56,391 bases of DNA from Phycisphaerales bacterium. Lineage in GTDB: Bacteria; Planctomycetota; Phycisphaerae; Phycisphaerales; UBA1924. Below the pieces are notes generated by a model. The model did not search any database, was not told the DNA's origin, and saw only the letters and a program-made list of their open reading frames with translations. Of the stretch, positions 31,643-54,371 are shown piece after piece. Positions within the stretch are counted from its first letter, which is position 1. Each line of letters starts with the position of its first letter. The translations under genes and the position numbers were made by a program. Where the stretch lies: NCBI GenBank assembly GCA_028285065.1, contig JANQQG010000086.1, positions 1-56,391 on the forward strand, read 5' to 3'.

Positions 31643-31644
31643 GC

Positions 31645-32655: not shown

Positions 32656-32675
32656 TCCGAGGCTGATCACGACCG

Positions 32676-37120: not shown

Positions 37121-37160
37121 GGGCGCGCTCCATGTCGCAATTCTCGGTTGGAGTCAGGAT

Positions 37161-40911: not shown

Positions 40912-43900
40912 CTAGGTCGGCTCGTCGTCCGCGGTGATCGAGACCCCGTACTCGGCGGCCACGGCGACGACCCTCTGGAGCGACTCCTCTTTCGACTCGC
41001 CGAGATCGACGAGGAGTGCGCGGTAGTTGGCCAACGCGGCTAGGAGCCTCGGATGCTGGTGCCCCGTCGAGCGTGTGAACTCTAGGAAGATGTTGATCAT
41101 CCGTCGCATGGGCGGCTCGGCTTCGGCTATCCGGTCCGTGGCGATGAGCAATGCAGCAAGGTTGTTGAGGTCGATGGCGACTTGGGGATGTTCGGCGCCG
41201 TAGCTCACCTTGTCGACCTCAAGCGCTCGTCGCATGAGCGGCTCGGCTTCGTCGAGTCGGTCGGCGGTGTTGAGCATTTGGGCGAGGTTGTTCAGGCGGA
41301 GGGCGACTGAAGGGTGCTCGGGGCCGAACGCCTGCTCATCGATCTCAAGCGCTCGTCGCATGAGTGACTCGGCTTCGTCGAGTCGGTTGGTACTGTGGAG
41401 TAACACAGCGAGGTTGCTCAGGCGGGTAGCTACGTTGGGATGTTCGGGACCGAAGCTCTGCTCATCGATCTCGAGCGCTCGTCGCATCGGCGGTTCGGCC
41501 TCGTCGAGTCGGTTGGTGGACTGGAGTAATTGGGCGAGGTTGTTCAGGCGGATGGACACCTTCGGGTGCTTGGGACCATAGGTCTGCTCGTCGATCTCGA
41601 GTGCCCGTCGGATGAGGGGCTCTGCCTCCTGGAGTCGGTTGGTGGCTTGGAGCAATGCAGCGAGATTGCTCAGGTCGCCGGCGACGTTGGGGTGCTCCGG
41701 GCCGAAGGTCTCCGCGTCGATGTCGAGTGCTCGTCGCAAGAGCGGCTCGGCTTCAGCGAGTCGGTTGGTCTCCTCGAGCAAGAGGGCGAGGTTGTTGAGG
41801 TCCCTCGAGACGCTGTGGTGTTGGGGACCGAAGTGCGTCTCATCGATGTCGAGTGCTCGTCGCATGAGCGGCTCAGCCTCGGCGAATCGACCGGTCGCTT
41901 TGAGCACCTGACTGAGGTTGCTCAACTTCGTGGCGATCCGTGGGTCCTGAGAATCGCCGCACTGCTCGTCGATCTCGATCGCTCGTCGCAGGAGTGGCTC
42001 GGCCTCGTCGAGTCGGTTGGTGTCTTGGAGCAACTGGGCGAGGTTGTTGAGGCTGATGGCCACGGCCGTGTGCTGAGGACCGAAGGCCTGCTCAGACAAT
42101 CCCAGTGCCCGGCGCATGAGAGGCTCGGCTTCCTCAAGGCGGTTGGTCGTGTGGAGCAACTGGGCGAGGTTGTTTGCCTCGGTGATGACCCTGGGGTGCT
42201 CAGGGCCGAACGCATCCTCGTCAATCTCGAGCGCGCGTCGCATGAGCGGCTCGGCTGCGGCCAAGCGCACTTGGAAGTGCAGATAGTGACCGACCTTGGC
42301 AAGGAGCCAGCCGCTCCGAAGGCCATCCCCGTGACGCCAAAGGTGCTCCGCAAGGGCCGGTCCGTGTGGTGAGAGGAGCTCCCAGATTGGCCAACTCTCG
42401 ACGTGCGTGTTCGTGTCGCCGTCGGGCGCATATCCACGTAGCGCCGTGACCGCCTCGTTCGCCGCCGCCTTGTGCTCTTTATCATCGAGCTGCGACGCCA
42501 CGACCGCCTGGATCAGTCGGTGCACGGTCACGGACTCACCGTCCTCGCTCCGCTTGGCGAGGCTGAAGAGCAGGAGCGGCATCAGGGCCTCGTCGAGGTC
42601 CTCCGTTGCTTCCTCGAGCAGCCCGACCGGGATCGGCGCGGGGGCCAGCAGCGAGCAGATCCGCAGCAGCCTGACCGACTCCTCGGGGAGCTGCTCGAGC
42701 GATGATTCGTAGGTTGTCGCCACGCTGCGCGGGTACTTCATCAGGCGCTCGTCGTGCCAGCCGCGGACCTTCTCGTCGAAGGATGCCCAACGCTCGCGGT
42801 AGGCGCTGATGGTGGTGCCGGTGGCTCGGATGTAGGCCGCGCTCTGTTCGAGGGCGAGGGCAAGCCCGTCGACGTCTTGGGCGAGCAGGCGTGCGTCCTG
42901 CTCGTCGTTCTCTGTGATCGCACGCCCGACCGTGCCCCGCCGCTCCGTGGCCTCCAGCAGGAACTCCGTCGAAGCGTCCTCGTCAAGGACGTTCAGCTCC
43001 AGCGGCGTCACGGCGTTCGACCATTGGCTGATGCGGCTTGTGATCACGACATGCCCCGCACGTAGGTGCGCGAGCTTCGCCTCGACCGCCGCGGCGGCCT
43101 CCTCCGTGTCTACGTTGTCGAGGATCAGGAACCAGCCGGAGTGGTGGTCCAACCAGCGCAGCACTTCCGCGAGCTTCACTTCGGCGTTCGCCTCGGGCGG
43201 CAGGCCGAGGTCGAGCACCAGCGGGCCGGCGAGCGCGCCCAGGTTCGCCATCAGCGCGTCGGGTGAGTCGGCCTGGACGAACAGGAGCGCGGAGTAGTCG
43301 GCTCTGTTGGCCAGGCCGAACTCGAGTGCGAGGCGGGTCTTGCCGACGCCGCCCTCGCCGTGGATCGACTGGCGCGCGACGATGGCCGTGGCGTGGGTGG
43401 ACTCAGCGCGGAGCGACTCGCGCAAGATGCTCATGGACTCCTCACGCCCCTTGAAGAGCGTGCCGAGGCTCGTGAACTCCTGGCTGAACGGGACCGTGAC
43501 CGGTGTCGTCGATGGCGCACCCGCACGCGGCGGATCCGCAAGCACCCGCTCGTGGCGCTCGATGATGTGGCGCACGATCTGGTCGATGGGGACGACGTTG
43601 CCGTCGATGTAGTGGGCCGTGTCCGGGATCGGGCGGACCCGCGCCTTGTCGAACCGGAGCAGGACGACGCGTGAGTCCTCTTGGTTGAGCATCAGGTCCT
43701 TGATGGCCTTGCCCTCGGCGTTGGTCCAGTTCTTGCGTGCGTAGTCCTCGCTGATGCAGACCACGACCAGCTCGGCCTGCTCGCGGTACAGGTCGTAGAG
43801 CGTCGCGTCGAGGTCGATGCCCGCCAGCTCCGCCTCGTGTCGACGGTCGTAGAAGACGCGCTCGGTGGGGAACTGCTTGCGCAGTTCGGCATCGAGGCGC

Positions 43901-43998
43901 AGCACGTGCTCGCGCTGCTCGCCCGCGTAACTGAATGCGATGTCGAACCGCCTCGGTGAGGCGGCCGCATCCTGAGATTGATGAGTTGCGTCAGCCAT
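40912..43998 (-). CDS. TIR - NB-ARC (STAND P-loop NTPase) - TPR repeat protein
   Basis: Start at the internal ATG at 43998 (MADATHQ). TIR region: FDIAFSYAGEQREHV...VVVCISEDYARKNWTNAEGKAI. P-loop HGEGGVGKTRLALEF. Walker B WFLILDNVD. Then ten 42-aa TPR units (NNLAQLL..TNRL.EAEPLMRRALEIDE..FGPEHP). Confidence 0.85.
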   Translation of the reverse strand: MADATHQSQDAAASPRRFDIAFSYAGEQREHVLRLDAELRKQFPTERVFYDRRHEAELAGIDLDATLYDLYREQAELVVVCISEDYARKNWTNAEGKAIKDLMLNQEDSRVVLLRFDKARVRPIPDTAHYIDGNVVPIDQIVRHIIERHERVLADPPRAGAPSTTPVTVPFSQEFTSLGTLFKGREESMSILRESLRAESTHATAIVARQSIHGEGGVGKTRLALEFGLANRADYSALLFVQADSPDALMANLGALAGPLVLDLGLPPEANAEVKLAEVLRWLDHHSGWFLILDNVDTEEAAAAVEAKLAHLRAGHVVITSRISQWSNAVTPLELNVLDEDASTEFLLEATERRGTVGRAITENDEQDARLLAQDVDGLALALEQSAAYIRATGTTISAYRERWASFDEKVRGWHDERLMKYPRSVATTYESSLEQLPEESVRLLRICSLLAPAPIPVGLLEEATEDLDEALMPLLLFSLAKRSEDGESVTVHRLIQAVVASQLDDKEHKAAANEAVTALRGYAPDGDTNTHVESWPIWELLSPHGPALAEHLWRHGDGLRSGWLLAKVGHYLHFQVRLAAAEPLMRRALEIDEDAFGPEHPRVITEANNLAQLLHTTNRLEEAEPLMRRALGLSEQAFGPQHTAVAISLNNLAQLLQDTNRLDEAEPLLRRAIEIDEQCGDSQDPRIATKLSNLSQVLKATGRFAEAEPLMRRALDIDETHFGPQHHSVSRDLNNLALLLEETNRLAEAEPLLRRALDIDAETFGPEHPNVAGDLSNLAALLQATNRLQEAEPLIRRALEIDEQTYGPKHPKVSIRLNNLAQLLQSTNRLDEAEPPMRRALEIDEQSFGPEHPNVATRLSNLAVLLHSTNRLDEAESLMRRALEIDEQAFGPEHPSVALRLNNLAQMLNTADRLDEAEPLMRRALEVDKVSYGAEHPQVAIDLNNLAALLIATDRIAEAEPPMRRMINIFLEFTRSTGHQHPRLLAALANYRALLVDLGESKEESLQRVVAVAAEYGVSITADDEPT
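41050..42300 (-). repeat. in-phase 126-bp coding repeats (about 10 TPR units)
   Basis: The anchor GCGCTCGTCGCAT recurs at 41223, 41349 and 41475 on the + strand, exactly 126 bp apart. At protein level there are 10 occurrences of AE(P/S)(L/P)(M/L/I)RR. Confidence 0.85.
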
Positions 43999-44184
43999 CG
44001 TCGGCCCTTCGCCACCCCCTCCTGCGGCCAATGGTAAGAGGCGTCGGTGGCTTCGAGGCCGGAAGCGCACCCCACGCATCCCCGTCCCGCCCACTATCAT
44101 CCCGTCTCCGGTCAAGAACCCGATCGGAGCACGAACCCATCGCCACCTTGTTGGGTGGTTAGCGAGCATTGAGGAAGCGGGCGG

Positions 44185-45732
44185 ATGAACAGGGCGAGGC
44201 GGACCGGGATCACGAGCGGTCGGTTGGTGCGCTGGGTGCTCTTGCTGGCGCTGACGGGCATCGCGGCTCCCGCCTGCGCAGCGGGCCCGGAGTCGGAGCC
44301 GCTCTCCAAGACAGAACGTGAGATCCTCGACGAGGTCTATGAGGTTGATCGGCGGCCGCGCCTGCTCATCGATCTCGTGCACGAGGGTGGGGACGCGGCC
44401 GAGCGAGTGATGACGGCGTGTCGCACCGGTGTCGAGCGCGAGCTCGCGCTCGCGGGCGTGCGGATCCTGGGCGTGCCGGACGACCCGTCGGACCGGGTTG
44501 CCAAGGTGCTCAATGCAACCGAGGGCGAGCGCCTGGTGGGCGACGACATGTTCGAGCTCATGTCGCTGGACCGAGTCGATTTGATCCTGCGCCTCAGCGC
44601 CCGCGAGCGTGGGAGCAGGATTCGCTACGAGGGCCAGTTCATCGACCTGCGCAGTGGAGAGGTCTTCGGTGGGCCGCGACTCTCACCGGGTCGGGTCGAC
44701 GAGATCGACGACGTCTACGGGCGCGCCCTCGGGAACAACCTGGCCCGCCAGTTCGCCGACGCGTTCGTCCGCGCGGGTGAGCGGCGCGCCGGCCGGCACA
44801 TGATCGCCCTGAGTGTCGGCGGCGTCGGTGAGCAGGCCGAGCACCACTCCCTTGTCAACGCGATCCGGCGCCTCGTCGGGGCCGCACCAGAGTCCGGGTG
44901 GCAACGCCGTCCGGCGCGCGGGTCCATCTCGCGTTTCAAGATCATGACGACGATGGACGCAGAGGCGCTCGGCGCGGAGCTCGAGTCAACCTTCGACGGC
45001 AAGTCCGGTCCGCTTCGTCTGCGTGTGCTGAGCATCGCGGGCTGGACGATCGCCGCGGAGCTCTTCCTCGCGGACCAGCCGCGTTGGCTCCAGGCGCGAG
45101 CCGTCGCGGATTCGCGCCGTCGCGTTTCGCGTGCGCGAGGTGAGACGATTGGGGTGGTGCTGCAGGGTGGCGGGCGCGCGACCGATCGGGTCATCGGCGA
45201 GTTGCGAGAGGTTGGTCTGCACGCCCAGCGTGGAGAAGAGTCGGTGCCGTTCGTAATTCGCGGTCGCGTGGGGACCAGGTCTGCCGAGCTGGTGATCGAG
45301 GACGTGGGCCAAGAGCGGATCATCGCCTTTGCGAGCTGGCCCTCGGAGGAGTTCGGCGATGGGCACGGGCTCGATCCGCTCGATGAGGCCGACAGGCTGC
45401 GCTACCTCATCGGGACACTCGCGGAGCAACTCGACCAGGGCATCACCGAGGACATCCGCCAACTCGATGTGCGCCTGAGCATCCCGGGGCGTGCCGAGGA
45501 GGCCCGAGCCGACGCGGAGGCGAGCCTGGGCACGCTGATCGGGGTCCGCAGGATCGTGCCGATCTCGGGCGACGATGATGCATGCCGCTTCCGGATCGAG
45601 TTTGCGCGGCGCTCGCACGAGAAGATGACGCGTGCCGTCCAGAACGCCTTGGAGTTCCTGTCGCCATCGTTGGAGCTGAAGCGCACGGAGCAAGGGACCC
45701 TGGTGTTCGAGCGCGCGGGCGGGGCTGAGTAG
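44185..45732 (+). CDS. secreted hypothetical protein, no family recognised
   Basis: GAGGAAG lies upstream of the ATG. Signal-like N-terminus LVRWVLLLALTGIAAPACAAG. 515 aa, divergent from the TIR-STAND gene with a 186-bp spacer. Confidence 0.6.
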   Translation: MNRARRTGITSGRLVRWVLLLALTGIAAPACAAGPESEPLSKTEREILDEVYEVDRRPRLLIDLVHEGGDAAERVMTACRTGVERELALAGVRILGVPDDPSDRVAKVLNATEGERLVGDDMFELMSLDRVDLILRLSARERGSRIRYEGQFIDLRSGEVFGGPRLSPGRVDEIDDVYGRALGNNLARQFADAFVRAGERRAGRHMIALSVGGVGEQAEHHSLVNAIRRLVGAAPESGWQRRPARGSISRFKIMTTMDAEALGAELESTFDGKSGPLRLRVLSIAGWTIAAELFLADQPRWLQARAVADSRRRVSRARGETIGVVLQGGGRATDRVIGELREVGLHAQRGEESVPFVIRGRVGTRSAELVIEDVGQERIIAFASWPSEEFGDGHGLDPLDEADRLRYLIGTLAEQLDQGITEDIRQLDVRLSIPGRAEEARADAEASLGTLIGVRRIVPISGDDDACRFRIEFARRSHEKMTRAVQNALEFLSPSLELKRTEQGTLVFERAGGAE

Positions 45733-45828: not shown

Positions 45829-47643
45829 ATGAAGAGCGAATCAAAGAAGATCGAACGTCCGCGTCCTGTCCTCCGCATCGGAGTGCTCTGGTTCGGCGAC
45901 GAGGCGGCCGGCGTTCCACCGAGTGCTCAGGTCGAGGCGATCGGCGGTCTGCTCGATGGCGCAAGGGCAGAGGCGGAGGGGGTCCTCGGGCAGTCACTCG
46001 CCGATGGCAGCGGGCGCACGCTCGCGGATCTGTTCGAGGGCCAGGACCTCGTGGTCAGACTCATCACCGGTGTTGCGACCGGGTTCGAGCGGTCGGCGAT
46101 CGATGCCGGAGCCCGGCGGGGCATCCTGTTGCGCTTGGTCAGCCGAGCCTCGTGGGCTACGGCGCGCGCAACCGGGGGAGAGTCGATCGGCACGATGGAG
46201 ACAATCGAGCGCTCCGAGGATCCGATCTGGGTCGAGTTGACGGGCGAGACGGAGGAGCGTCGAGAGCTCTTCGTTCGCGAGCAGTCCGACTTGATCATCG
46301 CGGGAGTCGATGGGTCCGAGCCATCGCGCCACCGGTTCGAGGCCTTCGCAGCGGCCGCTCGCATGCCGGTCCTCCCTGTTGGCCCGGCTGGGCTCGAGTC
46401 CGACACAGACCTCGCGGCGTTGGTCAGGATCGTGCTTGTTCCGACTGACTCGAGACACGACGTCGACAAGGACGTTGCGCAAGGAGTGCTCGATGATCTC
46501 TATGCCACGTTCGATCGATCTGGGACCGGGCTTTGGCGCGCGCTTCTCAGTGTGCTCTCGGTCCCGTGGAAGTCGCTCTATGGGCTGGCCAAGCTCAGGA
46601 CCGGGCATTCCGGTCCGGCCTCCGATGGTGATCAAGCGGACGTGAAGACCGAGCGCTTCGATGCGCACGTCAAGCGTCTGGCATCGACCCAGGAGGAGTT
46701 GGATGATCGCATCGCGATCCCCTTCATGAACGGGTACCGCGGCCTCGTCATCTGGTGTTACCTGCTCGGCTTCGTCGTCGTCGGTTTCGGCCTGGTGCAC
46801 GGCACCGTCAAGGCGCTCGAATCAGCCACGTGGCCCGCGGTGGTGGAGTTGGCATTGCTCCTCGTGATCCTGTCCCTCGTCTTCATCTCGGAACGCAAGC
46901 TCTCGCTGCGTCAGCGCGCTGCACGGGTGCGCCACATCGTCGAGCAACTGCGACACCTTCAGGCGCTCGCGGCGCTCGGGCGTGCGGCGAGTGCCGCGCC
47001 GCCGCCGCCGGGGTACTCGACGGTCGTGCCCTCCGACGGTGCATCTGGGTGGTACGCCCGTTCGATGTTCCGAGACGTCGGCACACCGGCGCCGTGCGAG
47101 GCGGCTCGCTCACGCTCCGAAGGCGAAGCCCCAACGATCGTGCGCTTTGATGACTCGTACTACACCGAGGTGCTCGCGGCCGCACGCGCCTGGGTGCGTG
47201 GCCAGCGGGACTACCACGAGGCAACGGCCCACCGGCACGAGTGGCTGGAGGAGCTTGCGGTCGACGTCATGTGGAGCCTGTTCGCACTCGTCATCATCGT
47301 CGTTGGGCTGAAGGTGGCGCACTGGATGCCGGGAACCGAGACGAGCAAGACAGTCGCGTTGTTCGTGATCGTGCTGGGACCGGCGCTGCTCGGAGCGGTG
47401 CACGCGATCGGCGTGCAGATCGAGTTCCTCCGCCTCGCCACCCGTTCCAAGGACCTCGCCGAGATGCTCTCTCTGCGGCTCGAGAAACGCCTGGGGGCGT
47501 CGGCAGAGCCCAACGAGGCCGGGTGGTCGGTCGCACAGCGCGGCGACCTGGAGTCGACACTCAGCGATCTCTCTACACTGATGCTCGCTGAGGTACTCGA
47601 GTGGCGAGCGATCTACCTGCTCAGAGAGTTGTTGCCACCATGA
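45829..47643 (+). CDS. SLOG-like (LOG/DprA-type Rossmannoid) domain fused to two SLATT/DUF4231-like 2TM modules
   Basis: N-terminus has LRIGVLWFG, LITGVATGFERSAIDAGARRG, RELFVREQSDLIIAGVDGSEPS and ARMPVLPV, a LOG/DprA-like strand-helix pattern. First TM pair: GLVIWCYLLGFVVVGFGLV / WPAVVELALLLVILSLVFI. Second TM pair: VMWSLFALVIIVVGLKVA / VALFVIVLGPALLGAVHAIGV, preceded by QRDYHEATAHRHEW. Domain naming rests on pattern memory. Confidence 0.55.
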   Translation: MKSESKKIERPRPVLRIGVLWFGDEAAGVPPSAQVEAIGGLLDGARAEAEGVLGQSLADGSGRTLADLFEGQDLVVRLITGVATGFERSAIDAGARRGILLRLVSRASWATARATGGESIGTMETIERSEDPIWVELTGETEERRELFVREQSDLIIAGVDGSEPSRHRFEAFAAAARMPVLPVGPAGLESDTDLAALVRIVLVPTDSRHDVDKDVAQGVLDDLYATFDRSGTGLWRALLSVLSVPWKSLYGLAKLRTGHSGPASDGDQADVKTERFDAHVKRLASTQEELDDRIAIPFMNGYRGLVIWCYLLGFVVVGFGLVHGTVKALESATWPAVVELALLLVILSLVFISERKLSLRQRAARVRHIVEQLRHLQALAALGRAASAAPPPPGYSTVVPSDGASGWYARSMFRDVGTPAPCEAARSRSEGEAPTIVRFDDSYYTEVLAAARAWVRGQRDYHEATAHRHEWLEELAVDVMWSLFALVIIVVGLKVAHWMPGTETSKTVALFVIVLGPALLGAVHAIGVQIEFLRLATRSKDLAEMLSLRLEKRLGASAEPNEAGWSVAQRGDLESTLSDLSTLMLAEVLEWRAIYLLRELLPP

Positions 47644-47951
47644 CAGCGCCGGATCCCAGCCCGTACACGCCGCGTCCGATCGATACATCGGGCATCTCGG
47701 TGCCGCCCGAACTCGACGCGCTCGTCGAGCGATTGGCGGAGCACACACACGACGTTTGGGCGCAGCAGCGCATGGCGGATGGGTGGACCCACGGCCCGGC
47801 GCGCGACGACGCGACACGGCGCCACCCCTGCCTCGTCCCGTACGCCGACCTGCCCGAGTCGGAGAAGACGTACGACCGGGAGGTTGCACGCGGTCTTCTG
47901 GCGGCACTGTTGGCGCTCGGGTGGAGCGTGGGGCGTGCGGGCAGCACGTAG
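47640..47951 (+). CDS. stand-alone RyR (ryanodine-receptor repeat) domain protein
   Basis: Contains LAEHTHDVWAQQRMADGWTHGPARDDATRRHPCLVPYADLPESEKTYDREVARGLLAALLALGW, which matches the RyR-domain consensus as I remember it. The ATG at 47640 overlaps the stop of the SLOG-SLATT gene (ATGA). Confidence 0.75.
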   Translation: MTAPDPSPYTPRPIDTSGISVPPELDALVERLAEHTHDVWAQQRMADGWTHGPARDDATRRHPCLVPYADLPESEKTYDREVARGLLAALLALGWSVGRAGST

Positions 47952-48019: not shown

Positions 48020-49030
48020 CTATGCCGCGGTCTTGAGTTCGGCAACGTCCTCGCCGGTCCCGGCGACGACCAGGACCTCACCGAGGGCTAGGGTGTGGGC
48101 GGGCTCGGGGTGGGTCGTCACATCGCCGGACGCATCGCGGATCGCGACGATCGCGAGGCGAGGATGGCGCTTCCCGAGTTGGATGATCGCTTCGCCCAGA
48201 TGAGGCGACTGCGGGCTGATCGCGATCTGCGCGAAGCTGAGCGCATCGGTCCCGCCTTGCAGCCCGGGGAGCAGGCGAGCAACCTCCGGGCGGAGCATGT
48301 TCTCTGCGATCCCGTCGCCTCCGTAGCTCGACGGACTGATCACGTTCGTCGCACCTGCTCGCCGCAGCTTGCAGATCGACGGCTCGTCCTCGGCGCGGGC
48401 GATGATCGGCACCTTGGGCGCCAGGGCGCGCGCGGTCAGACAGATCAGCGCATTGACGGCATCGGCCGAGGTCACGGCCGCTACGGCAGACGCGCGCTCG
48501 ATGCCGGCATCCTGAAGCGCCTGATCGGAGGTGGCATCGCCCTCGAAAGCGACGATGCCGCGCGTCTGCGCCTCGGCGACTCGGTGAGGATCGGAGTCGA
48601 TCGCGACGACCGCGGCGCCATCCTCGAGGAGCTTCGTGATGACACGTTCACCGGTGCGCCCGAGACCGCAGATGATGTGATGGTCTTGCAGCTTGCGTGC
48701 TTTCTCGATCATGCGTCGCTCCGGGTGTGTGGCGCGTGCCATGATGTTCTGGAGGATGAGGCCTGCGGTGTACGAGACGGTGCCGATGCCGCCGATCATG
48801 AGGACGGCGGTGAAGCGTTCGCCGTTCTCGGTCAGCCCGTAGTCGCCGTAGCCGACCGTGGTGAGCGTGACAAGCGTGAAGAAGAGCGATCGCCAAGGCG
48901 ACCAGCCCTCGATCCAGGTGTAGCCGGCCGTTCCGAATACGACGACCGCGCACAGCAGGAGAAGAGACCGGCGCACGACAGGGTCCCATTCCCCAGGGAG
49001 GATCCGCTTTGCGACACCCTGCGGGATCAT
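48020..49030 (-). CDS. 2TM potassium channel with RCK (TrkA-N/TrkA-C) gating domains (MthK/Kch-like)
   Basis: Selectivity filter TLTTVGYGDYG. Rossmann motif HHIICGLGRTGERV. C-terminal TrkA-C-like region (HLGEAIIQL...LAIVAIRD...GEVLVVAG). Confidence 0.9.
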   Translation of the reverse strand: MIPQGVAKRILPGEWDPVVRRSLLLLCAVVVFGTAGYTWIEGWSPWRSLFFTLVTLTTVGYGDYGLTENGERFTAVLMIGGIGTVSYTAGLILQNIMARATHPERRMIEKARKLQDHHIICGLGRTGERVITKLLEDGAAVVAIDSDPHRVAEAQTRGIVAFEGDATSDQALQDAGIERASAVAAVTSADAVNALICLTARALAPKVPIIARAEDEPSICKLRRAGATNVISPSSYGGDGIAENMLRPEVARLLPGLQGGTDALSFAQIAISPQSPHLGEAIIQLGKRHPRLAIVAIRDASGDVTTHPEPAHTLALGEVLVVAGTGEDVAELKTAA

Positions 49031-49122: not shown

Positions 49123-50025
49123 CTAGGCGAGCGAGAGTGCCATCTTGCTGACCATGCCGGCCTCGAGGAGGACCGCGGTCTCAGTGCCGCCGTCGACGAG
49201 TGTCCCGCTCTCCATGCGCTTCCCGACCACGATGATCCGCCAGACCCCGGGCTGGAGGCCGGCGAAAGCGACCGAGGTCCCTTCCCTCTCGATCGGCGGC
49301 TCGCCGTGACGCTCCAGCGTGACGGTTGCACTCTCCGCATTCGTGACACTCACGTCCAGGCCTGTGTCGAGAGAGCGCTGGACCTGCTCGGCCGCTCTCT
49401 GGCTTGCTTCAATCCGGGCCTTGACCATCCCATCGAGTTGCTTGAGCGAGCTGCGGAACTCTTCCATCCATTGGTCGGATTCTTCACGGATGAGCGCGTG
49501 GATCTCTGCATTGAGCTCGCGCATCACATGAAGTGCGTGCGTGGCCTGATCGTCGGTGGGTGTCTGGTCCCACGACTGCTGGAGTCGGAGCCACTGCAGG
49601 TTCGCGCGGTCGAGCAGTTCGGCTGTCCTCAACCCCGTACTCATGTAGCGCAGCCAACCGGACGTCGCTCCCAGGAAACGATCCACCCAGATGAGCCCCG
49701 CACCGATCAGGAGCGCCACGGCCGCCCACGTCGCTGGGATCATGGGCATTCCGTCGTCCTTCTTGATCAGCGAGGAGACAACGGGGATCAGCACTCCGAT
49801 GCCGGCCGCAAGGATCGCCAAGATCCGGATCGTGAGCCCGATGCTCCGCTTGCGGCCGCGTTTGCGGAAGTACCAGTCAATCGTCTCCCTGATCGGCTTG
49901 TGGACGAAGAGTTCGAACAGCGACTGAAGGCTGGCGCGCGGGTTGGCATCGTCCCAGACCGTCGCCTTGTCCAGAGACGGCCGGGTCAGGTCGGTTGCTT
50001 CGTTTCGCTTCCAGAACTTCCACAT
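49123..50025 (-). CDS. SLATT-like 2TM protein with coiled-coil and C-terminal beta-sandwich-like domain
   Basis: Contains IRETIDWYFRKRGRKRSIGLTIRILAILAAGIGVLIPVV, then TWAAVALLIGAGLIWVDRFLGATSGWLRY (2TM hairpin followed by a W..Y helix). The C-terminus reads VSVTNAESATVTLERHGEP...GVWRIIVVGKR. The start is either the ATG at 50025 or the GTG at 50061. Confidence 0.55.
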   Translation of the reverse strand: MWKFWKRNEATDLTRPSLDKATVWDDANPRASLQSLFELFVHKPIRETIDWYFRKRGRKRSIGLTIRILAILAAGIGVLIPVVSSLIKKDDGMPMIPATWAAVALLIGAGLIWVDRFLGATSGWLRYMSTGLRTAELLDRANLQWLRLQQSWDQTPTDDQATHALHVMRELNAEIHALIREESDQWMEEFRSSLKQLDGMVKARIEASQRAAEQVQRSLDTGLDVSVTNAESATVTLERHGEPPIEREGTSVAFAGLQPGVWRIIVVGKRMESGTLVDGGTETAVLLEAGMVSKMALSLA

Positions 50026-50234
50026 CGTGGCAACGCCCTCATCAATGTGCTGCACATCCACGCAGGCGGCGTGCGCGGGATGGACGCGCCGAGTCTATGG
50101 GTCGGTCGCTGTGTCTCATCATGAGACGGGGCAGTGCGGGCGTGTTTCACCTGATCGGGTGATCGACCCACCTTGCTAGGTAAGCCTCGGCGGGGTGTGC
50201 GGGAAGTACGGGGCAACGGCGTTAGCATTGGGTG

Positions 50235-51833
50235 ATGAGAGGCTTCACAGATCGCGCACGGAAGGTCATGGCACTGGCCAACCAAGAGGCCCAGCGCTTC
50301 AACCACGAGTACATCGGGACCGAGCACATCCTCCTCGGCCTCGTCAAGGAAGGCTCCGGGGTCGGCGCGAACGTGCTGAAGAACCTGGACGTTGACATCC
50401 GCAAGGTGCGCCTCGAGGTCGAGAAGCTCGTCAAGTCGGGACCGGACATAGTCACGATGGGCAAGCTCCCTCAGGCCCCGCGAGCCAAGAACGTCATCGA
50501 GTACGCCATCGAGGAGGCGCGCAATCTCAACCACCGCTACGTCGGCACGGAGCACCTCTTGCTCGGATTGCTCGATGAGCGGGATGGCGTTGCCGCGCTG
50601 GTCCTCATGAACCTGGGCCTGCGGCTTGAGGAGGTCCGGGAGGAGGTCCTCAACCTCCTCGGCGTGGGTGCGGAGCCAGACGAGGTAGAGGTGTTGCTCG
50701 CGGAGGGATTCACGTCACATCAGCTAGTCGAACTTGAGACTGAGATTCTCAGGATCTCGCGCCTTGAGGCGAGGGCAGTCGCTGAGCGAGCCTTCGACGA
50801 GGTCTCCGCATTTCGAGAGCGAGCAGAGCAGCTCCGGCGGCGGCGCGATGAACTCCGCAGGGCACTGCGCACGATCCCCGCCGGCGTGCCCCGCCTGCCC
50901 GAGCCATTGAAGGGGCTCGCGCTTGCCGTCGCGGCCCCGGATGCTCCGTTTGTCGAGCGTGCCGGGCTGGAGGAGATCGTCACGCACCTCAAGGAGCGCA
51001 CGCCGCTGCTCGTCGTAGGACCGTGCGGGAGCGGACGTTCTGCACTGGTTCGGGCGGCGGCCGAGCACATGCAGCGATCCGGCCAAGCTCGGTTGCTGAT
51101 GCAGCCGGACCACGAGGGACTGAGTGAGGACGGTGTTCCAGAAACCGATCGTCTGGAGCGGCTCGTCGATGCGTTCCGGAGGGATCCGTCGTACACGCTC
51201 GTGCTCGAGGACCTCGAGCAATACCTGCCCTCGCCGGCTGCGTCCGGGGCGTTCAGCGACGCGTGGCAAGTGTGGGTGATGGATGCGATCGGCCAGAGCG
51301 TAGCGCTCATGGCGACGACGACTCCGGACGGCCTTGGTGCGCTGCGCGACGCATGGCCCGGGTTCGTTGGGGGTGCCAGCGTGGTCGAGGTGCCGCCTAT
51401 CGATGATGCAGCGCTCGCCGAGATCCTGCGCCAGCGTTTGGCGACGATCGAGCGGACACATCCGGTCCGTTTCGACAATGGCGTTGTCGAGCAAGTGCTC
51501 CGCTTGGCCGCGGCGTGGGGAGCGGGCGCCGGGTTCGCCGAGCCGGGTCGCTCGCTGCGACTGATCGAGGACGCCGTCGCGCACGCTGGCGCGGCTCGGG
51601 TGGCCGAGCCGGTTGATTTGGGCGCGGGTGGTAAGGGCGTCGGGAGTGAGCAAGAGCTGAGCGATGCGGCGAGCGGGCGTCGTGTGGGATCGCTCGTCGA
51701 TAGCGGCAACTACGACGATGCGATCGCGATGATCGAGGAGCTACGCGCCCGCGAACGTGGGGCTCGGGGAGAGGTGAAGGCTGTGACATTCGGGGTGGCC
51801 GAGTTGAGGGCGTTCGTCGAGGAGGACAGTTGA
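50235..51833 (+). CDS. ClpC-like N-domain (2 x Clp_N) + UVR-like helix + single degenerate AAA-like P-loop module
   Basis: Clp_N repeats at EYIGTEHILLGLVKEG and RYVGTEHLLLGLLDE. UVR-like AVAERAFDEVSAFRERAEQLRRRRDEL. Walker-A-like VVGPCGSGRSALV has Arg in place of Lys. Walker-B-like LVLEDLE. Only about 533 aa, with no second ATPase module. Confidence 0.75.
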   Translation: MRGFTDRARKVMALANQEAQRFNHEYIGTEHILLGLVKEGSGVGANVLKNLDVDIRKVRLEVEKLVKSGPDIVTMGKLPQAPRAKNVIEYAIEEARNLNHRYVGTEHLLLGLLDERDGVAALVLMNLGLRLEEVREEVLNLLGVGAEPDEVEVLLAEGFTSHQLVELETEILRISRLEARAVAERAFDEVSAFRERAEQLRRRRDELRRALRTIPAGVPRLPEPLKGLALAVAAPDAPFVERAGLEEIVTHLKERTPLLVVGPCGSGRSALVRAAAEHMQRSGQARLLMQPDHEGLSEDGVPETDRLERLVDAFRRDPSYTLVLEDLEQYLPSPAASGAFSDAWQVWVMDAIGQSVALMATTTPDGLGALRDAWPGFVGGASVVEVPPIDDAALAEILRQRLATIERTHPVRFDNGVVEQVLRLAAAWGAGAGFAEPGRSLRLIEDAVAHAGAARVAEPVDLGAGGKGVGSEQELSDAASGRRVGSLVDSGNYDDAIAMIEELRARERGARGEVKAVTFGVAELRAFVEEDS

Positions 51834-52822
51834 TGCTGGAGAACACGGTCCTGTTCCAACGTCTCGAGGCGTGCTGCGGGAAGTGCGAAGCGGGCGGTCT
51901 CGACCTCACACGCCTGCCCACGATGGTCAAGGACAGCACGGACGAACTCGGGAACGTCCTGGATCGCGCCGTCAAGACATTCGACGACTACACGCTGCAC
52001 GACCGGGCGCACGCGGTGCGCGTCGTCAAGCTGATGTCGAACCTACTCGGTCCGGATCGGCTCGATGCACTTACGCCTGTTGACCTCGCTGTCCTGATCC
52101 TCGCGGCCTACGCCCATGACACGGGCATGGCCGCCTCGAAGGAGCGCCGGGATGAGTTGAAGGCATCGCCCGAGTACGCCGAGTTCATGCTCCGTCACGA
52201 GAGCGAATGGGTGGAGGTCGAGCGTGTGCGGGCCGGTGACGATCCCGCCCGAGCCGCGTTCCTCGAATCGCGCCTGTTTCAGGAGTTCCTGCGCTCGCGC
52301 CACCACCTACTCTCGGCCGAATTGGTCCGCAAGCACTTTGCGTCTGGGATGACGGTGCAGGAGAAGTCGTTTGCGCCGATGGTTGCGGACTTGTGTCGGA
52401 GCCACGGCGAGTCGGTCGCGTGGGTTGCGAGGGAGCTGCAGAGTGTCCCGTTCGCCATGGACTACAACGTGGACCTCCCATTCCTCGCGTGCGTGTTGCG
52501 ACTCGCGGACTTTCTGGATCTCGACGCAACGCGTGCGCCCGAGAGCCTGATGACACTGATCAAGCGTGGTAATGAGAGGAGCCATCGTGAGTGGCGGAAG
52601 CACCAGGCGTCACTCTTCTCGGTCTCCGACACGGCCATTCGGTTCAACGCGACATTTGAAGATTTCTTTGAAGAGAAGGTACTCCGCGACACGCTGGACG
52701 CCATCGAAGTCGAGCGTAAGGAGATCATGGGTTTTCTTGGGGCAGGGGTGGGGGAGGGGGCCGCCTGGGGTTGGATCTGCCTGTCGAGCGTCAAATCGAG
52801 TCCGTTGGCTACCTCTACGTGA
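51833..52822 (+). CDS. HD-superfamily metal-dependent phosphohydrolase-like protein
   Basis: The ATG at 51833 overlaps the preceding stop (TGATG). Contains LHDRAHAVRV, LILAAYAHDTGMA, LCRSHGES and LRLADFLDLDATR. The reading frame ends at the TGA at 52820-52822, just after a G-run region. Confidence 0.7.
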   Translation: MLENTVLFQRLEACCGKCEAGGLDLTRLPTMVKDSTDELGNVLDRAVKTFDDYTLHDRAHAVRVVKLMSNLLGPDRLDALTPVDLAVLILAAYAHDTGMAASKERRDELKASPEYAEFMLRHESEWVEVERVRAGDDPARAAFLESRLFQEFLRSRHHLLSAELVRKHFASGMTVQEKSFAPMVADLCRSHGESVAWVARELQSVPFAMDYNVDLPFLACVLRLADFLDLDATRAPESLMTLIKRGNERSHREWRKHQASLFSVSDTAIRFNATFEDFFEEKVLRDTLDAIEVERKEIMGFLGAGVGEGAAWGWICLSSVKSSPLATST

Positions 52823-52865
52823 GTTCAAGTTCCAACTCGAGTACCGCGAGATCATCACACTGCTC

Positions 52866-54371
52866 ATGGGAGTCCAGCTGTACCGAGACCAGAGAGTCTT
52901 CGTGCGAGAACTGCTCCAGAACGCGCTCGATGCGTGCCGCGTGAGCCAGATCACGGCCGAGAAGCGAGGAGGCAACTACACAGGCTCGATCCACTGCGCG
53001 CTGCGCAATACGGCGGACGGTGAGCAGATTCTCGAAGTCTCCGACAGGGGGTCGGGCATGACCAAGGCGATCATCGGTGACTTCTTCATGCGAGTGGGCC
53101 GGTCCTACTACCATTCTTTCGCGTTCCGACGCCGTCAGCTTGGCTTCGAGCCGATCAGCCAGTTTGGAATTGGCATCCTCTCTTGCTTCATGAATGCGGA
53201 TCGGATCGAGGTCGAGACTCGACCCGATCCGCTCGTCCACGAGACACTCGACGATGACGAGCGTGCGGGCCTGCACCTCGAGATCAGTGGCCCGCACGAG
53301 TACTTCGTTGTCCGACGTCTCAACCGTGATCTGGTCGGCGACGGGTTCCCGCAGGGCACGACGGTCCGTGTCTACCTCGAGCGCCCCTTGGGTCCGAGCT
53401 TGCGGCGCGTCGTGCAGGAGTTTCTTGCACGGACGCCGTACAATGTGAGCGTCGAAGAGTCGGACCACTCGCGGACGGAGGTGGTGAGCCGTGAGTTCGG
53501 GTTCGAGGATGACGCGTTCCTGGGCGTGTTCGAGGCTGCGCCGGGGGCGTTCGGGTACGCGCACCGGGACGTTGAGTTCAACGGCGCGCTGGGCTTTGAT
53601 CTTAGAGGGACCGTCCGCCTGTTCATGCTCGATCGTGACGCGCGTCGTTACTTGTCGTTGCGAGACGCCGGACAGTACTCCGTCGTGGGTTTTTCCGAGA
53701 TGGGTGAGACGCTGGTCAATGTTGCGCGCATGTCGGATGAGGTGGCCGGGACGCTCCGCAGCCATGTCGCGGAGCTCCGTTCGACCGGAGCCGAAGTGTC
53801 CCGCGACGCACGAGGCGATATCGAGCAGGTTGCTCGAGTGGTCGAGCGTCTGCTCGAGGCGCTTGCTCACCGTCATGATTCCGACGAGGTCAACGCACAG
53901 TGGGTATCACTGGATGCGCAGATTGACGCGATCCGCACGTCGCAGGCGTTTCGGACCTCGCCCCGCCATCCGGTCGTGGCGGGCACCCTTCGGCGGATTC
54001 GCACCGGTCTCGAGTCCTTCGTCACCGGCAACGTGTCGCTTGCCGCACCCACCGGGTTGCTGACACAGGACGGGATCGATCTCTCCAATGCGTTCTATCT
54101 CTCACGCCACCTTCGGCTCGGCATCGCTCATATGTTCAACCTGGACCTCTGCGGCAAACATCGCGTCACCCTCACCGCTTCCAGAAACGACATCGTTGCT
54201 GACCATCGGCTCGACGCGCTCGTTGCGCATTTCCATGAGCGCATCGGGCTGGAGCTTGGCAGGTGGTTCACCGAGGAAGAGGTTCCGCCGGAGCAGATCG
54301 ATGCCTACTTGCGTGTTGCGCCCAAGGCGCTTGGCGCGGCAGTCCGGCGTGGACTCGATTCGCCGAGCTAG
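52866..54371 (+). CDS. Hsp90-like GHKL (Bergerat fold) ATPase with uncharacterised C-terminal region
   Basis: Motif I RELLQNALDA, motif II SDRGSGM, motif III ISQFGIGILSCF. The first ATG in frame is at 52866. Protein-like sequence in this frame already begins at 52821 (EFKFQLEYREIITLL), so the true 5' end is unresolved (see findings). Confidence 0.7.
   Translation: MGVQLYRDQRVFVRELLQNALDACRVSQITAEKRGGNYTGSIHCALRNTADGEQILEVSDRGSGMTKAIIGDFFMRVGRSYYHSFAFRRRQLGFEPISQFGIGILSCFMNADRIEVETRPDPLVHETLDDDERAGLHLEISGPHEYFVVRRLNRDLVGDGFPQGTTVRVYLERPLGPSLRRVVQEFLARTPYNVSVEESDHSRTEVVSREFGFEDDAFLGVFEAAPGAFGYAHRDVEFNGALGFDLRGTVRLFMLDRDARRYLSLRDAGQYSVVGFSEMGETLVNVARMSDEVAGTLRSHVAELRSTGAEVSRDARGDIEQVARVVERLLEALAHRHDSDEVNAQWVSLDAQIDAIRTSQAFRTSPRHPVVAGTLRRIRTGLESFVTGNVSLAAPTGLLTQDGIDLSNAFYLSRHLRLGIAHMFNLDLCGKHRVTLTASRNDIVADHRLDALVAHFHERIGLELGRWFTEEEVPPEQIDAYLRVAPKALGAAVRRGLDSPS

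Follow-up and report, generated by a model that had tools for sequence, protein, structure and literature searches.

Why a bacterium should encode a single ryanodine receptor (RyR) repeat as a protein of its own, in a gene that overlaps that of a membrane protein, is the question raised by the locus described here. It lies in a stretch of 56,391 nucleotides from a Phycisphaerales bacterium, the whole of which is referred to as the window (Table 1). The answer that we prefer, advanced tentatively and rated at somewhat less than an even chance, is that approximately 40.9-48 kb of the window form a Thoeris-like TIR abortive-infection module, in which the RyR protein would be the signal-binding regulatory partner of a SLOG–SLATT effector.

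Table 1. Features of the locus, with positions in the window, strand and basis of the assignment
Feature	Position	Strand	Basis
TIR–NB-ARC(STAND)–TPR protein	40912..43998	-	Pfam TIR_2 5.6e-10, NB-ARC/AAA_16, DUF7779, many TPR
Orphan 515-aa protein, N-terminal hydrophobic signal-like segment	44185..45732	+	GC3 0.84
604-aa putative effector: SLOG-fold N-domain, DUF4231-like 2TM, linker, SLATT_1-like 2TM and C-terminal helices	45829..47643	+	
SLOG-fold N-domain, aa ~13-205 (family signature motifs lost)	45865..46443	+	AF2, Foldseek
First 2TM hairpin module, aa ~275-381, DUF4231-like	46651..46971	+	Hydropathy, AF2, homologue matches
Second 2TM hairpin and C-terminal cytoplasmic helices, aa ~442-598, SLATT_1-like	47152..47622	+	
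ATGA stop/start overlap of the effector and RyR genes	47640..47643	+	Direct sequence reading
Stand-alone single-repeat RyR protein, 103 aa	47640..47951	+	Pfam RyR PF02026
RCK-gated 2TM K+ channel, TVGYGD filter	48020..49030	-	Pfam Ion_trans_2, TrkA_N, TrkA_C

An overlapping gene pair and its RyR product

The 604-aa ORF is considered a genuine gene, since its GC3 of 0.80 against a GC2 of 0.49 is the pattern expected at the 67% GC of the window. Its TGA stop codon (47641-47643) overlaps the ATG of the RyR gene at 47640, as the preliminary description had stated and as can be read directly from the sequence; the resulting ATGA is an arrangement indicating translational coupling of the two genes, and it also argues against a recent insertion of the RyR gene. 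That this ATG is the start of the RyR gene is supported by the N-terminus of its product, which aligns in register with the N-termini of stand-alone bacterial homologues. The product itself is one RyR repeat, as had been proposed, matching Pfam RyR (PF02026) over positions 1-90 of the 91 in the profile with E=8.5e-35 and 119.3 bits, the cut-off being 27.4. Its phmmer matches in the PDB comprise the repeats of RyR1-3 and the bacterial structures 3NRT and 6UAG, and roughly half of its residues are identical to those of repeat 1 of mammalian RyR2 in the printed alignment.

The same preliminary description held that bacterial RyR repeats have no assigned function, a statement that, as far as the fold is concerned, has become outdated. 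In phages, proteins with a RyR domain bind the TIR-made cADPR isomers 2'/3'cADPR or hydrolyse them (PMC13232231; bioRxiv 10.64898/2026.06.04.730250), with nanomolar affinity for 2'/3'cADPR and cADPR (2026 preprints), and the RY12 domain of RyR1 is a sensor of ADP and nucleotides (2026 paper). Residues H37, W40, H62 and D79 of the window protein correspond to H75, W78, H100 and D117 of RyDEP and to H129, W132, H154 and D171 of RyR Tad, with identical spacing in all three (+3, +25, +42), and in the same comparison of the ligand pocket K147 is replaced by R55 and K170 by Y78. On these grounds, the window RyR is predicted to bind, as a homodimer, ligands that are adenine nucleotides or derive from ADPR. 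It shares with RyDEP and RyR Tad the single-repeat fold, a similar size and a predicted dimeric habit, but those proteins, a glycosidase and sponges, respectively, are phage-encoded inhibitors of Thoeris, whereas the window gene belongs to no phage-encoded anti-defence locus: it is chromosomal, it is coupled to an effector gene by the overlap, and its linkage with TIR genes is cross-phylum. With the animal RY12 it shares an adenine-nucleotide (ADP/ATP) pocket formed by the same residues, and in some bacterial fusions a channel-like protein likewise bears a tandem pair of repeats; unlike RY12, the window RyR is a soluble single repeat and belongs to no Ca2+ release channel.

Fold and membrane modules of the 604-aa protein

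The preliminary description had read the larger protein as a SLOG-like sensor fused to two SLATT-like modules, and this stood the analysis through homologues and the structural model, while a direct profile match to the window protein was absent: at E<=1, neither SLOG nor SLATT profiles of Pfam, NCBIfam or PADLOC matched it. In the MSA-based AlphaFold model (AF2; pLDDT 88.5, pTM 0.89), the N-domain has six beta strands (14-22, 75-80, 100-104, 133-137, 155-160 and 181-185) alternating with helices, which together with the Foldseek matches makes it a Rossmannoid domain of the SLOG type. These matches include ShosA (probability 1.00), MCP (0.99, TMt 0.51) and DprA (0.94), besides the LOG-like 1wek and TRPM2/4/5/8, none of them with a full-length E-value <=1e-3. 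TRPM structures head the Foldseek list for the effector with weak full-length E-values of at least 0.013; in TRPM2-type channels, which are gated by ADPR, a cytoplasmic SLOG fold (MHR1-2 in TRPM2) also stands N-terminal to a membrane permeability module, but the window effector lacks their 6TM pore domain.

Hydropathy reveals four hydrophobic helices grouped in two hairpins (~305-327/335-358 and 478-499/507-531), with which the helices of the model agree, so that the two separate hairpins described before are upheld. The module of the first hairpin consists of helices 275-327, 335-358 and 360-381, and hydropathy and model together yield two units of the organization expected of SLATT, a two-TM hairpin flanked by cytoplasmic helices. 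When the two hairpins were compared with each other by hhalign, the probability was 7.8%. Homologues supply the names of the parts. In the N-domain, P0124 matches YpsA, a SLOG model, with 28.9 bits (cut-off 27.7), and other homologues match Nuc_deoxyrib_tr and DprA; on the equivalent of the first hairpin, P0156 matches DUF4231 with its residues 324-388 and 29.7 bits (cut-off 24.7), and P0155, P0160 and P0135 match it there too; and SLATT_1 is matched by P0156, P0147 and P0151 on the equivalent of the second hairpin and the C-terminal helices, the coordinates keeping the two hairpins apart. Among the members scanned, DUF4231 was matched in 28/80 (best 2.6e-7) and SLATT_1 in 13/80 (best 1.5e-6, under the cut-off). 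The family consensus matches YpsA (0.003), SLATT_1 (1e-4) and, weakly, SLATT_3, SLATT_4, SLATT_5, SLATT_6 and S_4TM, all under the gathering scores. The SLOG/SLATT assignment of the window protein is thus supported transitively, by way of its homologues and the predicted fold.

An exhaustive sequence search recovered at least 278 representatives of the family, in which conservation runs across the 4TM module. This module is fused to a SLOG-fold domain family-wide, in line with the typical association of SLATT, by fusion or in the genome, with SLOG, SMODS or TIR components. The motifs quoted in the preliminary description are present in the 604-aa protein and align to the SLOG motif positions of the family, where GHR, LAEGAD and WDG..GGT are near-universal in 70 loci; at these same positions the window protein has WFG, VATGFE and GVDG..-RHR, and has therefore lost all three. 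The segment QRDYHEATAHRHEW was found before the second hairpin, as reported, and Q459 of this region is invariant in an alignment of 80 family sequences. In a larger alignment of 150 sequences, Q459 and H463 are conserved in >=90%, and P518, A519, E532, S540, E588 and W592 are, like them, invariant or near-invariant in the region of the second hairpin; it is in this hairpin and the C-terminal part that conservation across the family is highest. Despite the loss of its SLOG motifs, the window effector retains those residues that are invariant in the 4TM module.

Genomic company of the effector family

We surveyed 70 genome loci from different species, each with a member of the effector family, over 8 kb. 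The absence of RyR genes beside the effector in other genomes had been set beforehand as a refuting test, and RyR-domain ORFs were in fact present in 22 of the 70 loci, within 300 bp in 15 of them, a frequency that, with species-distinct loci, exceeds chance. No RyR gene lies within 8 kb in the remaining 48, which makes RyR an accessory and not an essential partner. Near the family it occurs alone or fused in 2TM–TrkA_N–RyR×2, RelA/SpoT–SLOG–RyR and AAA–RyR proteins, and in L043, L072 and L084 a RelA_SpoT–LSDAT_prok–RyR protein carries SLOG and RyR on a single polypeptide. Gene orders include effector>RyR>TIR-NB-ARC (L013), RyR>TIR>x>effector (L056), effector>TIR>2TM-TrkA_N-RyR (L023) and abutting RyR>effector genes (L018, L045, L050 and L060). 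The adjacency, in both orders and as fusions, spans Acidobacteriota, Planctomycetota, Alpha-, Beta-, Gamma- and Deltaproteobacteria and others. Wherever else a stand-alone RyR accompanies the family, the SLOG motifs are intact, and for this reason replacement of SLOG by RyR is not a general rule.

TIR ORFs are even more frequent, being found within 8 kb in 40/70 loci and within 300 bp in 16; six of six TIR calls cross-checked by Pfam were confirmed. Homologues of the TIR–STAND protein of the window adjoin family genes in L014, L027, L024, L008 and L013; L008 has one TIR–NB-ARC gene, and L001 has two TIR genes beside the family member, an arrangement reminiscent of type III Thoeris. In the window, the TIR gene lies one gene away from the effector and is divergent from it, an arrangement in keeping with the Thoeris plan of a TIR gene beside an effector with a signal-binding domain. 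Its start is probably ATG 43998 (MADATH...) and not GTG 44382, and in PADLOC the protein matches generic TPR and PDC-S66 models only. Both this gene and the TIR context of the family had been overlooked in the preliminary description.

Between the TIR and effector genes sits an unrelated orphan, the first gene of the + strand, which had been thought possibly to share the transcript of the pair. It is coding-like and the gap of 96 bp to the effector ORF is as given, but its membership in the system is doubtful, given that no related locus contains a homologue; its product has no match in Pfam, NCBIfam or PADLOC.

On the other side, coordinates and Pfam agree with the earlier placement of an RCK-gated K+ channel 68 bp from the RyR stop codon, on the opposite strand and convergent. 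This gene, which is co-directional with a SLATT_2 gene, is a possible, unproven third component of the system, and its relevance appears greater than was assumed, in view of the 2TM–TrkA_N–RyR fusions of related loci. Such fusions are confirmed by Pfam in nine of these (eight of the 70 genome loci and L007) and called by local HMMs in two further genome loci. The version with two repeats, found in L007, L010, L015, L023, L025, L044, L058, L064, L066 and L070, is the commonest RyR architecture near the effector family. The window does not encode a single 2TM–RCK–tandem RyR polypeptide; its RyR and channel are separate convergent genes.

Among known systems, the closest points of comparison are Thoeris types. 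Type VII combines the TIR protein ThsB with the SLATT effector ThsH and signals by canonical cADPR (bioRxiv 10.64898/2025.12.03.692087). The window has in common with it a TIR protein and a SLATT-class membrane effector, with a predicted disruption of the membrane by an ADPR-derived signal, and differs from it in the N-terminal SLOG fold, in the two unlike SLATT-type hairpins (DUF4231-like and SLATT_1-like), in having its TIR domain within a STAND–TPR protein, and in the coupled RyR gene; RyR or PF02026 is not mentioned in the portions of that report and its supplements available as text. Type I (ThsA, SIR2–SLOG) and, as a possible parallel, type III (several TIRs and the SLOG-containing effector ThsD) share the use of SLOG as the receiver of TIR-made cADPR isomers, but the output module in the window is a 4TM SLATT-type one and not SIR2, and its SLOG has lost the family motifs. 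An earlier paper on bacterial RyR proteins presents, in the passages accessible to us, the same stand-alone and 2TM–TrkA_N–RyR×2 architectures as observed here, with nucleotide sensing proposed from structure prediction only; those passages contain no neighbourhood link to TIR, SLOG or SLATT. The literature searched yielded no paper pairing RyR with SLATT, in agreement with the previous opinion that the coupling had not been described.

Candidate roles for the RyR protein

Starting from the domain identities, the linkage of the family with TIR and RyR genes and the residue conservation established here, the preferred reading would proceed as follows. The TIR–NB-ARC–TPR protein, likely both the infection sensor and the signal-generating enzyme, would sense infection and turn NAD+ into an ADPR-derived signal, probably a cADPR isomer. 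The effector, with two SLATT-type hairpins in the inner membrane and with the SLOG-fold domain, the linker between the hairpins and the C-terminal helices predicted on the cytoplasmic side, would upon activation perturb membrane integrity or ion permeability, as suggested by SLATT homology. The RyR protein, co-made with the effector, would form an RY12-like homodimer, bind the nucleotide signal and regulate its partner. We infer the nature of the ligand, the formation of a complex, the sense in which RyR regulates the effector, and what the effector does to the membrane. The role of co-sensor was chosen because the window SLOG has lost its three motifs and the RyR ligand residues are intact, and also because RyR is elsewhere a C-terminal regulatory domain on SLOG-containing, AAA and RCK-channel-like proteins. 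Moreover, the recurrence of the pairing across phyla points to a native role of the RyR domain in immune signalling. Weighing against the preferred reading are the many family loci that lack RyR, the intact SLOG motifs beside stand-alone RyR genes elsewhere, the inhibitory action of all stand-alone RyR proteins characterised by experiment, the unrelated orphan that parts the TIR gene of the window from the effector, and close RyR homologues found away from this effector, for example beside sigma54-type AAA and NUDIX genes or an IS21 element.

The same TIR/SLOG–SLATT system could instead employ RyR as a negative regulator, a host buffer (sponge) or cADPR glycosidase that would set the activation threshold, curb autoimmunity from basal TIR activity or reset the system, and that may be likened to the ring nucleases known from type III CRISPR. 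We consider this rather unlikely, although analogy favours it, as all characterised stand-alone RyR proteins are inhibitors that sequester or hydrolyse 2'/3'cADPR. Equivalents of the catalytic dyad, H37 and D79, are present together with W40 and H62, but these residues are also kept in the non-catalytic sponges and in animal RyRs and hence do not discriminate between the roles. Tight co-translation, by the ATGA in the window or by abutting genes in L018, L045, L050 and L060, would fix the buffer:effector ratio that titration needs, and most family members lack RyR, as a modulator predicts; however, the C-terminal fusions of RyR to executors (2TM–TrkA_N, AAA and RelA_SpoT–SLOG) have the appearance of a sensor rather than of an off-switch, and a negative regulator would leave the window effector, with its degenerate SLOG, without an obvious sensor.

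That RyR partners the RCK channel, the two being a split form of 2TM–TrkA_N–RyR×2 that would act as a nucleotide-gated K+ flux effector while the overlap would mean co-expression alone, is in our view quite improbable. The prevalence of the tandem fusion near the family speaks for it, as do L086 and L087, where a TrkA_N protein of this kind comes after a stand-alone RyR and a TIR–STAND gene is close by, and the validation of type X Thoeris (TIR and ion channel) as defensive. Nevertheless, the window channel combines TrkA_C with the canonical K+ filter TVGYGD, whereas in the fusions the pore-like segment is non-canonical (LQLFTLESG) and the middle region is long; the channel gene is on the opposite strand, in the direction of the SLATT_2 gene; RCK channels are common housekeeping genes; and the other loci where a stand-alone RyR abuts the effector (L013, L018, L045, L050 and L060) have no TrkA_N gene. 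It is very improbable that the adjacency has nothing to do with immunity, the pair serving membrane or nucleotide homeostasis as housekeeping genes or RyR being an anti-defence gene borne by a mobile element. Consistent with that possibility, PADLOC gave no match for the 604-aa protein, the RyR protein or the family members, RyR genes are present in 234 phage records, and an IS21 element adjoins one close RyR homologue; yet the adjacency is conserved across phyla and classes, in both orders and in fusions, and co-occurs strongly with TIR, STAND, NUDIX and RelA_SpoT–SLOG genes.

With RyR as the signal-binding partner of the effector, as we prefer, the locus and its relatives place a host RyR inside TIR/SLOG–SLATT defence operons and give the bacterial domain, whose thousands of genes have so far been unexplained, a concrete role open to testing, in which it would sense or regulate immune signals derived from ADPR. 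They also bring forward a widespread Thoeris-type effector family, made of SLOG and two SLATT-type hairpins, that is unmodelled and missing from PADLOC, make a host origin plausible for the RyR counter-defence proteins of phages, and offer a bacterial setting for studying the debated link between cADPR and the ryanodine receptor. A bolder proposition, which we hold to be doubtful, is that the RyR repeat is the native receptor for TIR-made cADPR-type signals, supplants, in this window, a degenerate SLOG to gate the tandem-SLATT effector, and is the source of phage and animal RyR domains. If true, these bacterial systems, which in sister loci carry two RyR repeats on RCK channel-like proteins within the same TIR operons, would be the evolutionary source of phage RyDEP and RyR Tad as well as of animal RY12 with its nucleotide sensing, and the long debated cADPR–RyR link would be traced to an ancient immune pathway.

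Architecture of the putative effector and its overlapping RyR gene

The preliminary description had reported a 604-aa protein, here called the effector, with two transmembrane (TM) hairpins whose stop codon overlaps the start of an ORF encoding a RyR domain, and this observation was confirmed by ORF calling, hydropathy, the sequence itself and Pfam, every sequence string quoted at that time being found in the window. The effector ORF has a GC3 of 0.80 and a GC2 of 0.49, values usual for real genes of this 67% GC window, and a Kyte-Doolittle scan gave four hydrophobic helices forming the two hairpins (approximately residues 305-327/335-358 and 478-499/507-531). Its TGA (47641-47643) and the RyR ATG at 47640 share an ATGA. 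The RyR protein matches PF02026 with E=8.5e-35 (119 bits, for a cut-off of 27.4), has around half of its residues in common with repeat 1 of mammalian RyR2 in the printed alignment, and also matches 3NRT and 6UAG, two solved bacterial single-repeat proteins.

Alone, the effector had no match at E<=1 in Pfam, NCBIfam or PADLOC, nothing relevant among the PDB sequences, and zero similarity by BLASTP to the SLATT_2 protein of the window. A word-indexed homology search returned only the query, and one extra protein when an 80-sequence alignment was used, while an exhaustive HMMER search retrieved 278 representatives at E<=1e-3, a family for which PADLOC has no model. Conservation across the family lies in the C-terminal ~310 residues, including both hairpins, and the N-domain is also common to the members of 550-750 aa, which are the majority. 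Among 80 members scanned with Pfam, DUF4231 was found in 28 (best 2.6e-7), SLATT_1 in 13, YpsA-SLOG in three, SLATT_fungal and Nuc_deoxyrib_tr in two each, and DprA in one. The first hairpin corresponds to DUF4231 (e.g., residues 324-388 of family member P0156, with 29.7 bits for a cut-off of 24.7), the second hairpin, along with the C-terminal helices, to SLATT_1 (P0156, 450-573; P0147, 614-736), and the N-domain to YpsA (P0124, 75-188, 28.9 bits vs 27.7). The family consensus ranked the profiles in agreement with these scans, with every score under the gathering score: YpsA, Nuc_deoxyrib_tr and DprA for the N-domain; DUF4231, S_4TM and SLATT_3 for hairpin 1; SLATT_1, 4, 5 and 6 for hairpin 2. 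Comparison of the two hairpins by hhalign gave a probability of 7.8%, which does not demonstrate an internal duplication.

An AlphaFold model based on a 150-sequence alignment was confident (pLDDT 88.5, pTM 0.89; the single-sequence model, with a pLDDT of 41.7, was of no use) and has an N-domain of Rossmannoid beta-alpha-beta type together with two long hairpins of helices and with helices on the cytoplasmic side. A Foldseek search of the PDB produced no match at E<=1e-3 over the full length. TRPM2/4/5/8, which have SLOG folds as their N-terminal domains, nevertheless headed the list, and at the level of domains it had high-probability matches to ShosA (1.00), DprA (0.94), the MoCo carrier protein (0.99, TMt 0.51) and a LOG-like protein. 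The earlier reading of the effector, as a SLOG-like sensor carrying two 2TM modules of SLATT-like type, is therefore supported, though transitively and by fold only.

The window copy departs from its family in the N-domain. The motifs G-x-x-G-H-R, L-A-E-G-A-D and W-D-G…G-G-T, near-universal in the 70 genome loci analyzed below, are all gone, being replaced by WFG, VATGFE and GVDG…RHR with a deletion at the GGT position. Retained are the membrane-module residues R304, R368, E372, R375, R415, Q459, H463, P518, E532, E588 and W592, which are invariant or nearly so in the family. The SLOG fold is predicted to be preserved; canonical ligand binding by this domain seems doubtful. A general rule by which a RyR domain always replaces a dead SLOG was ruled out, since other RyR-linked members have intact SLOG motifs.

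Recurrence of TIR and RyR genes around the family

A pattern scan built on a 10-sequence alignment of the family, taking one genome per species, gave 70 loci (1.02 Mb in total), all with a full-length family member, from Acidobacteriota, Planctomycetota, Gemmatimonadota, Alpha-, Beta-, Gamma- and Deltaproteobacteria and other groups; retrieval relied on two family motifs, and the sample is therefore biased to canonical members. Six-frame ORFs, called by simple rules and with distances measured from stop to stop, were searched with locally built HMMs, the TIR search requiring several seeds because the window TIR alone yielded no match. A TIR-domain ORF lies within 8 kb in 40 of the 70 loci (within 300 bp in 16 of these), both TIR and RyR occur in 12, and neither in 20. 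The adjacency of RyR and SLOG–SLATT genes thus recurs in other genomes, with a RyR-domain ORF within 8 kb in 22/70 loci, the syntenic Acidobacteriota loci L018, L045, L050 and L060 counting as one event. Pfam found TIR_2 in six of six local TIR calls checked, several being TIR–NB-ARC/NACHT–TPR/WD40 proteins, and RyR in all 14 of the larger RyR-domain ORFs that were checked. PF02026 is rare in bacteria, at a rough, uncomputed estimate of less than one chance RyR gene per ~1,000 flanking genes. Independently of this estimate, 15 of the 22 RyR ORFs abut the effector (within 300 bp), a clustering that random placement in the flanks would not produce.

Among the closest homologues, three had informative neighbourhoods: P0122, adjoined by two TIR genes (L001), P0126, followed by a TIR–NB-ARC gene (L008), and P0124, adjoined by a convergent gene for a 589-aa TrkA_N + RyR protein (L007). 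Homologues of the TIR–STAND protein of the window flank family members in L014, L027, L024, L008 and L013. In L063, two full-length paralogues of the effector (6888-8792, +; 11459-13420, -) have a TIR ORF in between. The stop-to-stop frames holding the effector in L065, L069 and L075 are much longer (822-1480 aa), that of L065 with a TIR-like segment in its C-terminal part, which hints at fusions or frame artefacts.

The RyR partners take several forms. Stand-alone repeats of ~100-135 aa are directly upstream of the effector, on the same strand, in the syntenic Acidobacteriota loci, downstream in L013 and in the window, and more distant in L056. Three large proteins, whose architecture is to our knowledge undescribed, join RelA_SpoT (a nucleotide pyrophosphokinase) to LSDAT_prok, a prokaryotic SLOG of TRPM type, and to RyR at the C-terminus, and their genes adjoin TIR, DUF4062 or NUDIX genes; AAA–RyR proteins occur in L026 and L064. 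Channel-like proteins of ~590-800 aa begin with a pore-like 2TM module, in which a segment such as LQLFTLESG separates TM1 from TM2, continue with TrkA_N (RCK) and a middle region, carry two RyR repeats in tandem, and were found in L007, L010, L015 (weak), L023, L025, L044, L058, L064, L066 and L070; PMC13642953 mentions such 2TM–TrkA_N–RyR×2 proteins as 'putative tetrameric cation channels'.

The close stand-alone homologues of the window RyR (60-70% identity) have contexts related, not identical, to that of the window (table), and none was evident for L006 and L088; scanning metagenomes for the RyR protein yielded three loci only. RyR is thus an accessory module that recurs in conflict systems of the NAD+/ADPR type and is not exclusive to the effector family. 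The closest homologue (70% identity) lies 20 bp downstream of a gene for a ~510-aa AAA protein of the Sigma54_activat type (L002/L003:4440-6288); a NUDIX gene is near, and a similar AAA protein starts the cluster at L084:1-1394; such pairs may be a separate RyR-containing system.

Features of the window locus and of related loci (L, retrieved relatives)
Feature	Position	Strand	Remarks
MoxR (AAA_3)–DUF58–unknown–VWA–VWA operon, then 1427-aa ORF (36624..40907)	31639..40907	+	1427-aa ORF: no Pfam match, no homologue in related loci
TIR_2–NB-ARC–TPR protein (TIR–STAND)	40912..~43998	-	Divergent from orphan > effector > RyR (+)
Orphan ORF	44185..45732	+	First of + strand series; ORF call
Effector ORF, 604 aa	45829..47643	+	ORF call
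RyR-domain ORF, 103 aa	47640..47951	+	Pfam PF02026, full-length domain
Canonical RCK K+ channel	48020..49030	-	TVGYGD filter, TrkA_C domain; convergent with RyR gene
SLATT_2 protein, 312 aa, bona fide	49123..50061	-	Pfam 1e-20, NCBIfam 3e-34
Three consecutive ORFs	50232..54371	+	Clp_N protein, weak STAND-like P-loop, 533 aa; HD-CE protein (51830..52822, E=2.4e-51); 601-aa protein, weak HATPase_c match
UvrD/PcrA helicase	54411..56345	-	After HATPase_c ORF
RelA_SpoT–LSDAT_prok(SLOG)–RyR	L043:3513-6056	-	~840-865 aa
RelA_SpoT–LSDAT_prok(SLOG)–RyR	L072:3323-5830	+	~840-865 aa
RelA_SpoT–LSDAT_prok(SLOG)–RyR	L084:2374-4971	+	~840-865 aa
Effector > RyR > TIR-NB-ARC	L013		Operon-like
RyR > TIR > x > effector	L056		Operon-like
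Effector > TIR > channel-like RyR	L023		Operon-like
Channel-like RyR > TIR > effector	L044		Operon-like
Effector > channel-like RyR > TIR-NACHT-TPR	L064		Operon-like
RyR protein > effector > TIR > TIR	L039		Operon-like
RyR homologue	L002/3		Sigma54-type AAA + NUDIX genes
RyR homologue	L084/85		DUF4062 + NUDIX + RelA_SpoT–SLOG–RyR
RyR homologue	L086/87		NUDIX-TIR-NB-ARC-TPR, distant effector relative, stand-alone RyR, 2TM–TrkA_N–RyR protein
RyR homologue	L081		RyR then TIR

Other genes of the window locus

The longest TIR–STAND ORF has a GTG start at 44382, and with the added stretch 43999..44382 it would run into the divergent orphan gene. The TIR domain begins ~20 aa past an internal ATG at 43998 (MADATH...). 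A start at this ATG is more likely and makes the divergent intergenic region 186 bp long. The orphan, which the preliminary description had tentatively placed in the same transcript, is without a homologue in all related loci; its membership is therefore not supported, and it was rejected as a component. The SLATT_2 protein, which has a ~100-aa C-terminal extension, likewise lacks homologues there. Its gene lies 92 bp upstream of that of the RCK channel and is co-directional with it, and the two could be a second membrane-effector pair of the island. A scan for promoters and terminators, and one for inverted repeats in the gap between the convergent RyR and channel genes, gave nothing informative in this GC-rich DNA. 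The three ORFs beyond the SLATT_2 gene look like another adjoining conflict/defence module.

Possible role of the RyR protein

Two phage RyR-fold dimers, RyDEP (PMC13232231) and RyR Tad (bioRxiv 10.64898/2026.06.04.730250), block Thoeris, the TIR-signalling anti-phage defence, by hydrolysis of 2'/3'cADPR or by nanomolar binding of 2'/3'cADPR and cADPR. We aligned RyR Tad (gp68 from NC_048653) with the window protein, in which its ligand residues H129, W132, K147, H154, K170 and D171 correspond to H37, W40, R55, H62, Y78 and D79; the RyDEP equivalents H75, W78, H100 and D117 have identical spacing. Every aligned homologue, whether stand-alone or channel-fused, keeps the histidine and the tryptophan; the acidic position holds D, apart from N in one fusion, and several fusions vary at the second histidine. 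The window protein is therefore very likely a binder of adenine nucleotides or ADPR derivatives. The RY12 domain of RyR1 binds ADP, and the Repeat12 domain binds ADP or AMP-PCP. The same residues are kept by non-catalytic sponges and so do not separate hydrolysis from plain binding. In phages, tblastn with the window RyR protein matched 234 records (Salmonella 68, Pseudomonas 41, Arthrobacter 26, Erwinia 14, Pectobacterium 10, and others), one annotated as 'Anti-CRISPR protein' and some as 'membrane protein', and RyR-domain genes are far more widely spread among phages than in the sample of the two preprints.

We tentatively propose a Thoeris-like module, in which the TIR–STAND–TPR protein would make a signal derived from ADPR and the SLOG–tandem-SLATT protein would act on the membrane as effector, while the co-translated RyR dimer would bind the signal and, in complex with the effector, regulate it. 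The domain identities and the genomic linkages are results of the analysis; which ligand is bound, the complex, the direction of regulation and the effect on the membrane are inferences. Known related systems are type VII Thoeris (TIR + SLATT), whose signal is canonical cADPR (10.64898/2025.12.03.692087), and type X, a defensive system of TIR and an ion channel. In the window locus RyR is most likely a co-sensor, because its SLOG has degenerate motifs, because other loci have SLOG and RyR fused in a single polypeptide, and because executor proteins repeatedly carry RyR as a C-terminal domain. All experimental knowledge of stand-alone RyR proteins favours instead a host-encoded buffer or glycosidase that would set the threshold of the system or reset it, the main alternative, which we hold to be somewhat less likely here. 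It is improbable that the RyR protein serves the K+ channel: in view of the 2TM–TrkA_N–RyR fusions, an RCK channel with a stand-alone RyR next to it may be their split counterpart, but the window channel differs from them in having a TVGYGD filter and TrkA_C, and any TrkA_N gene is missing from most loci with a stand-alone RyR. An adjacency devoid of immune function is likewise improbable.

Associations of SLOG with SLATT are reportedly known from the 2015 paper of Burroughs et al. that named these domains. Systems of TIR and SLATT are likewise known, as type VII Thoeris (10.64898/2025.12.03.692087). Undescribed in the searchable literature are the widespread and mostly TIR-linked family of SLOG + DUF4231-like + SLATT_1-like effectors, host RyR-domain genes as conserved parts of TIR/SLOG–SLATT operons, the presence of 2TM–RCK–RyR×2 proteins inside such operons, and a family member with a degenerate SLOG but an intact RyR partner. 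The window locus and its relatives make the function of bacterial RyR domains, and its link to cADPR signalling, directly testable.
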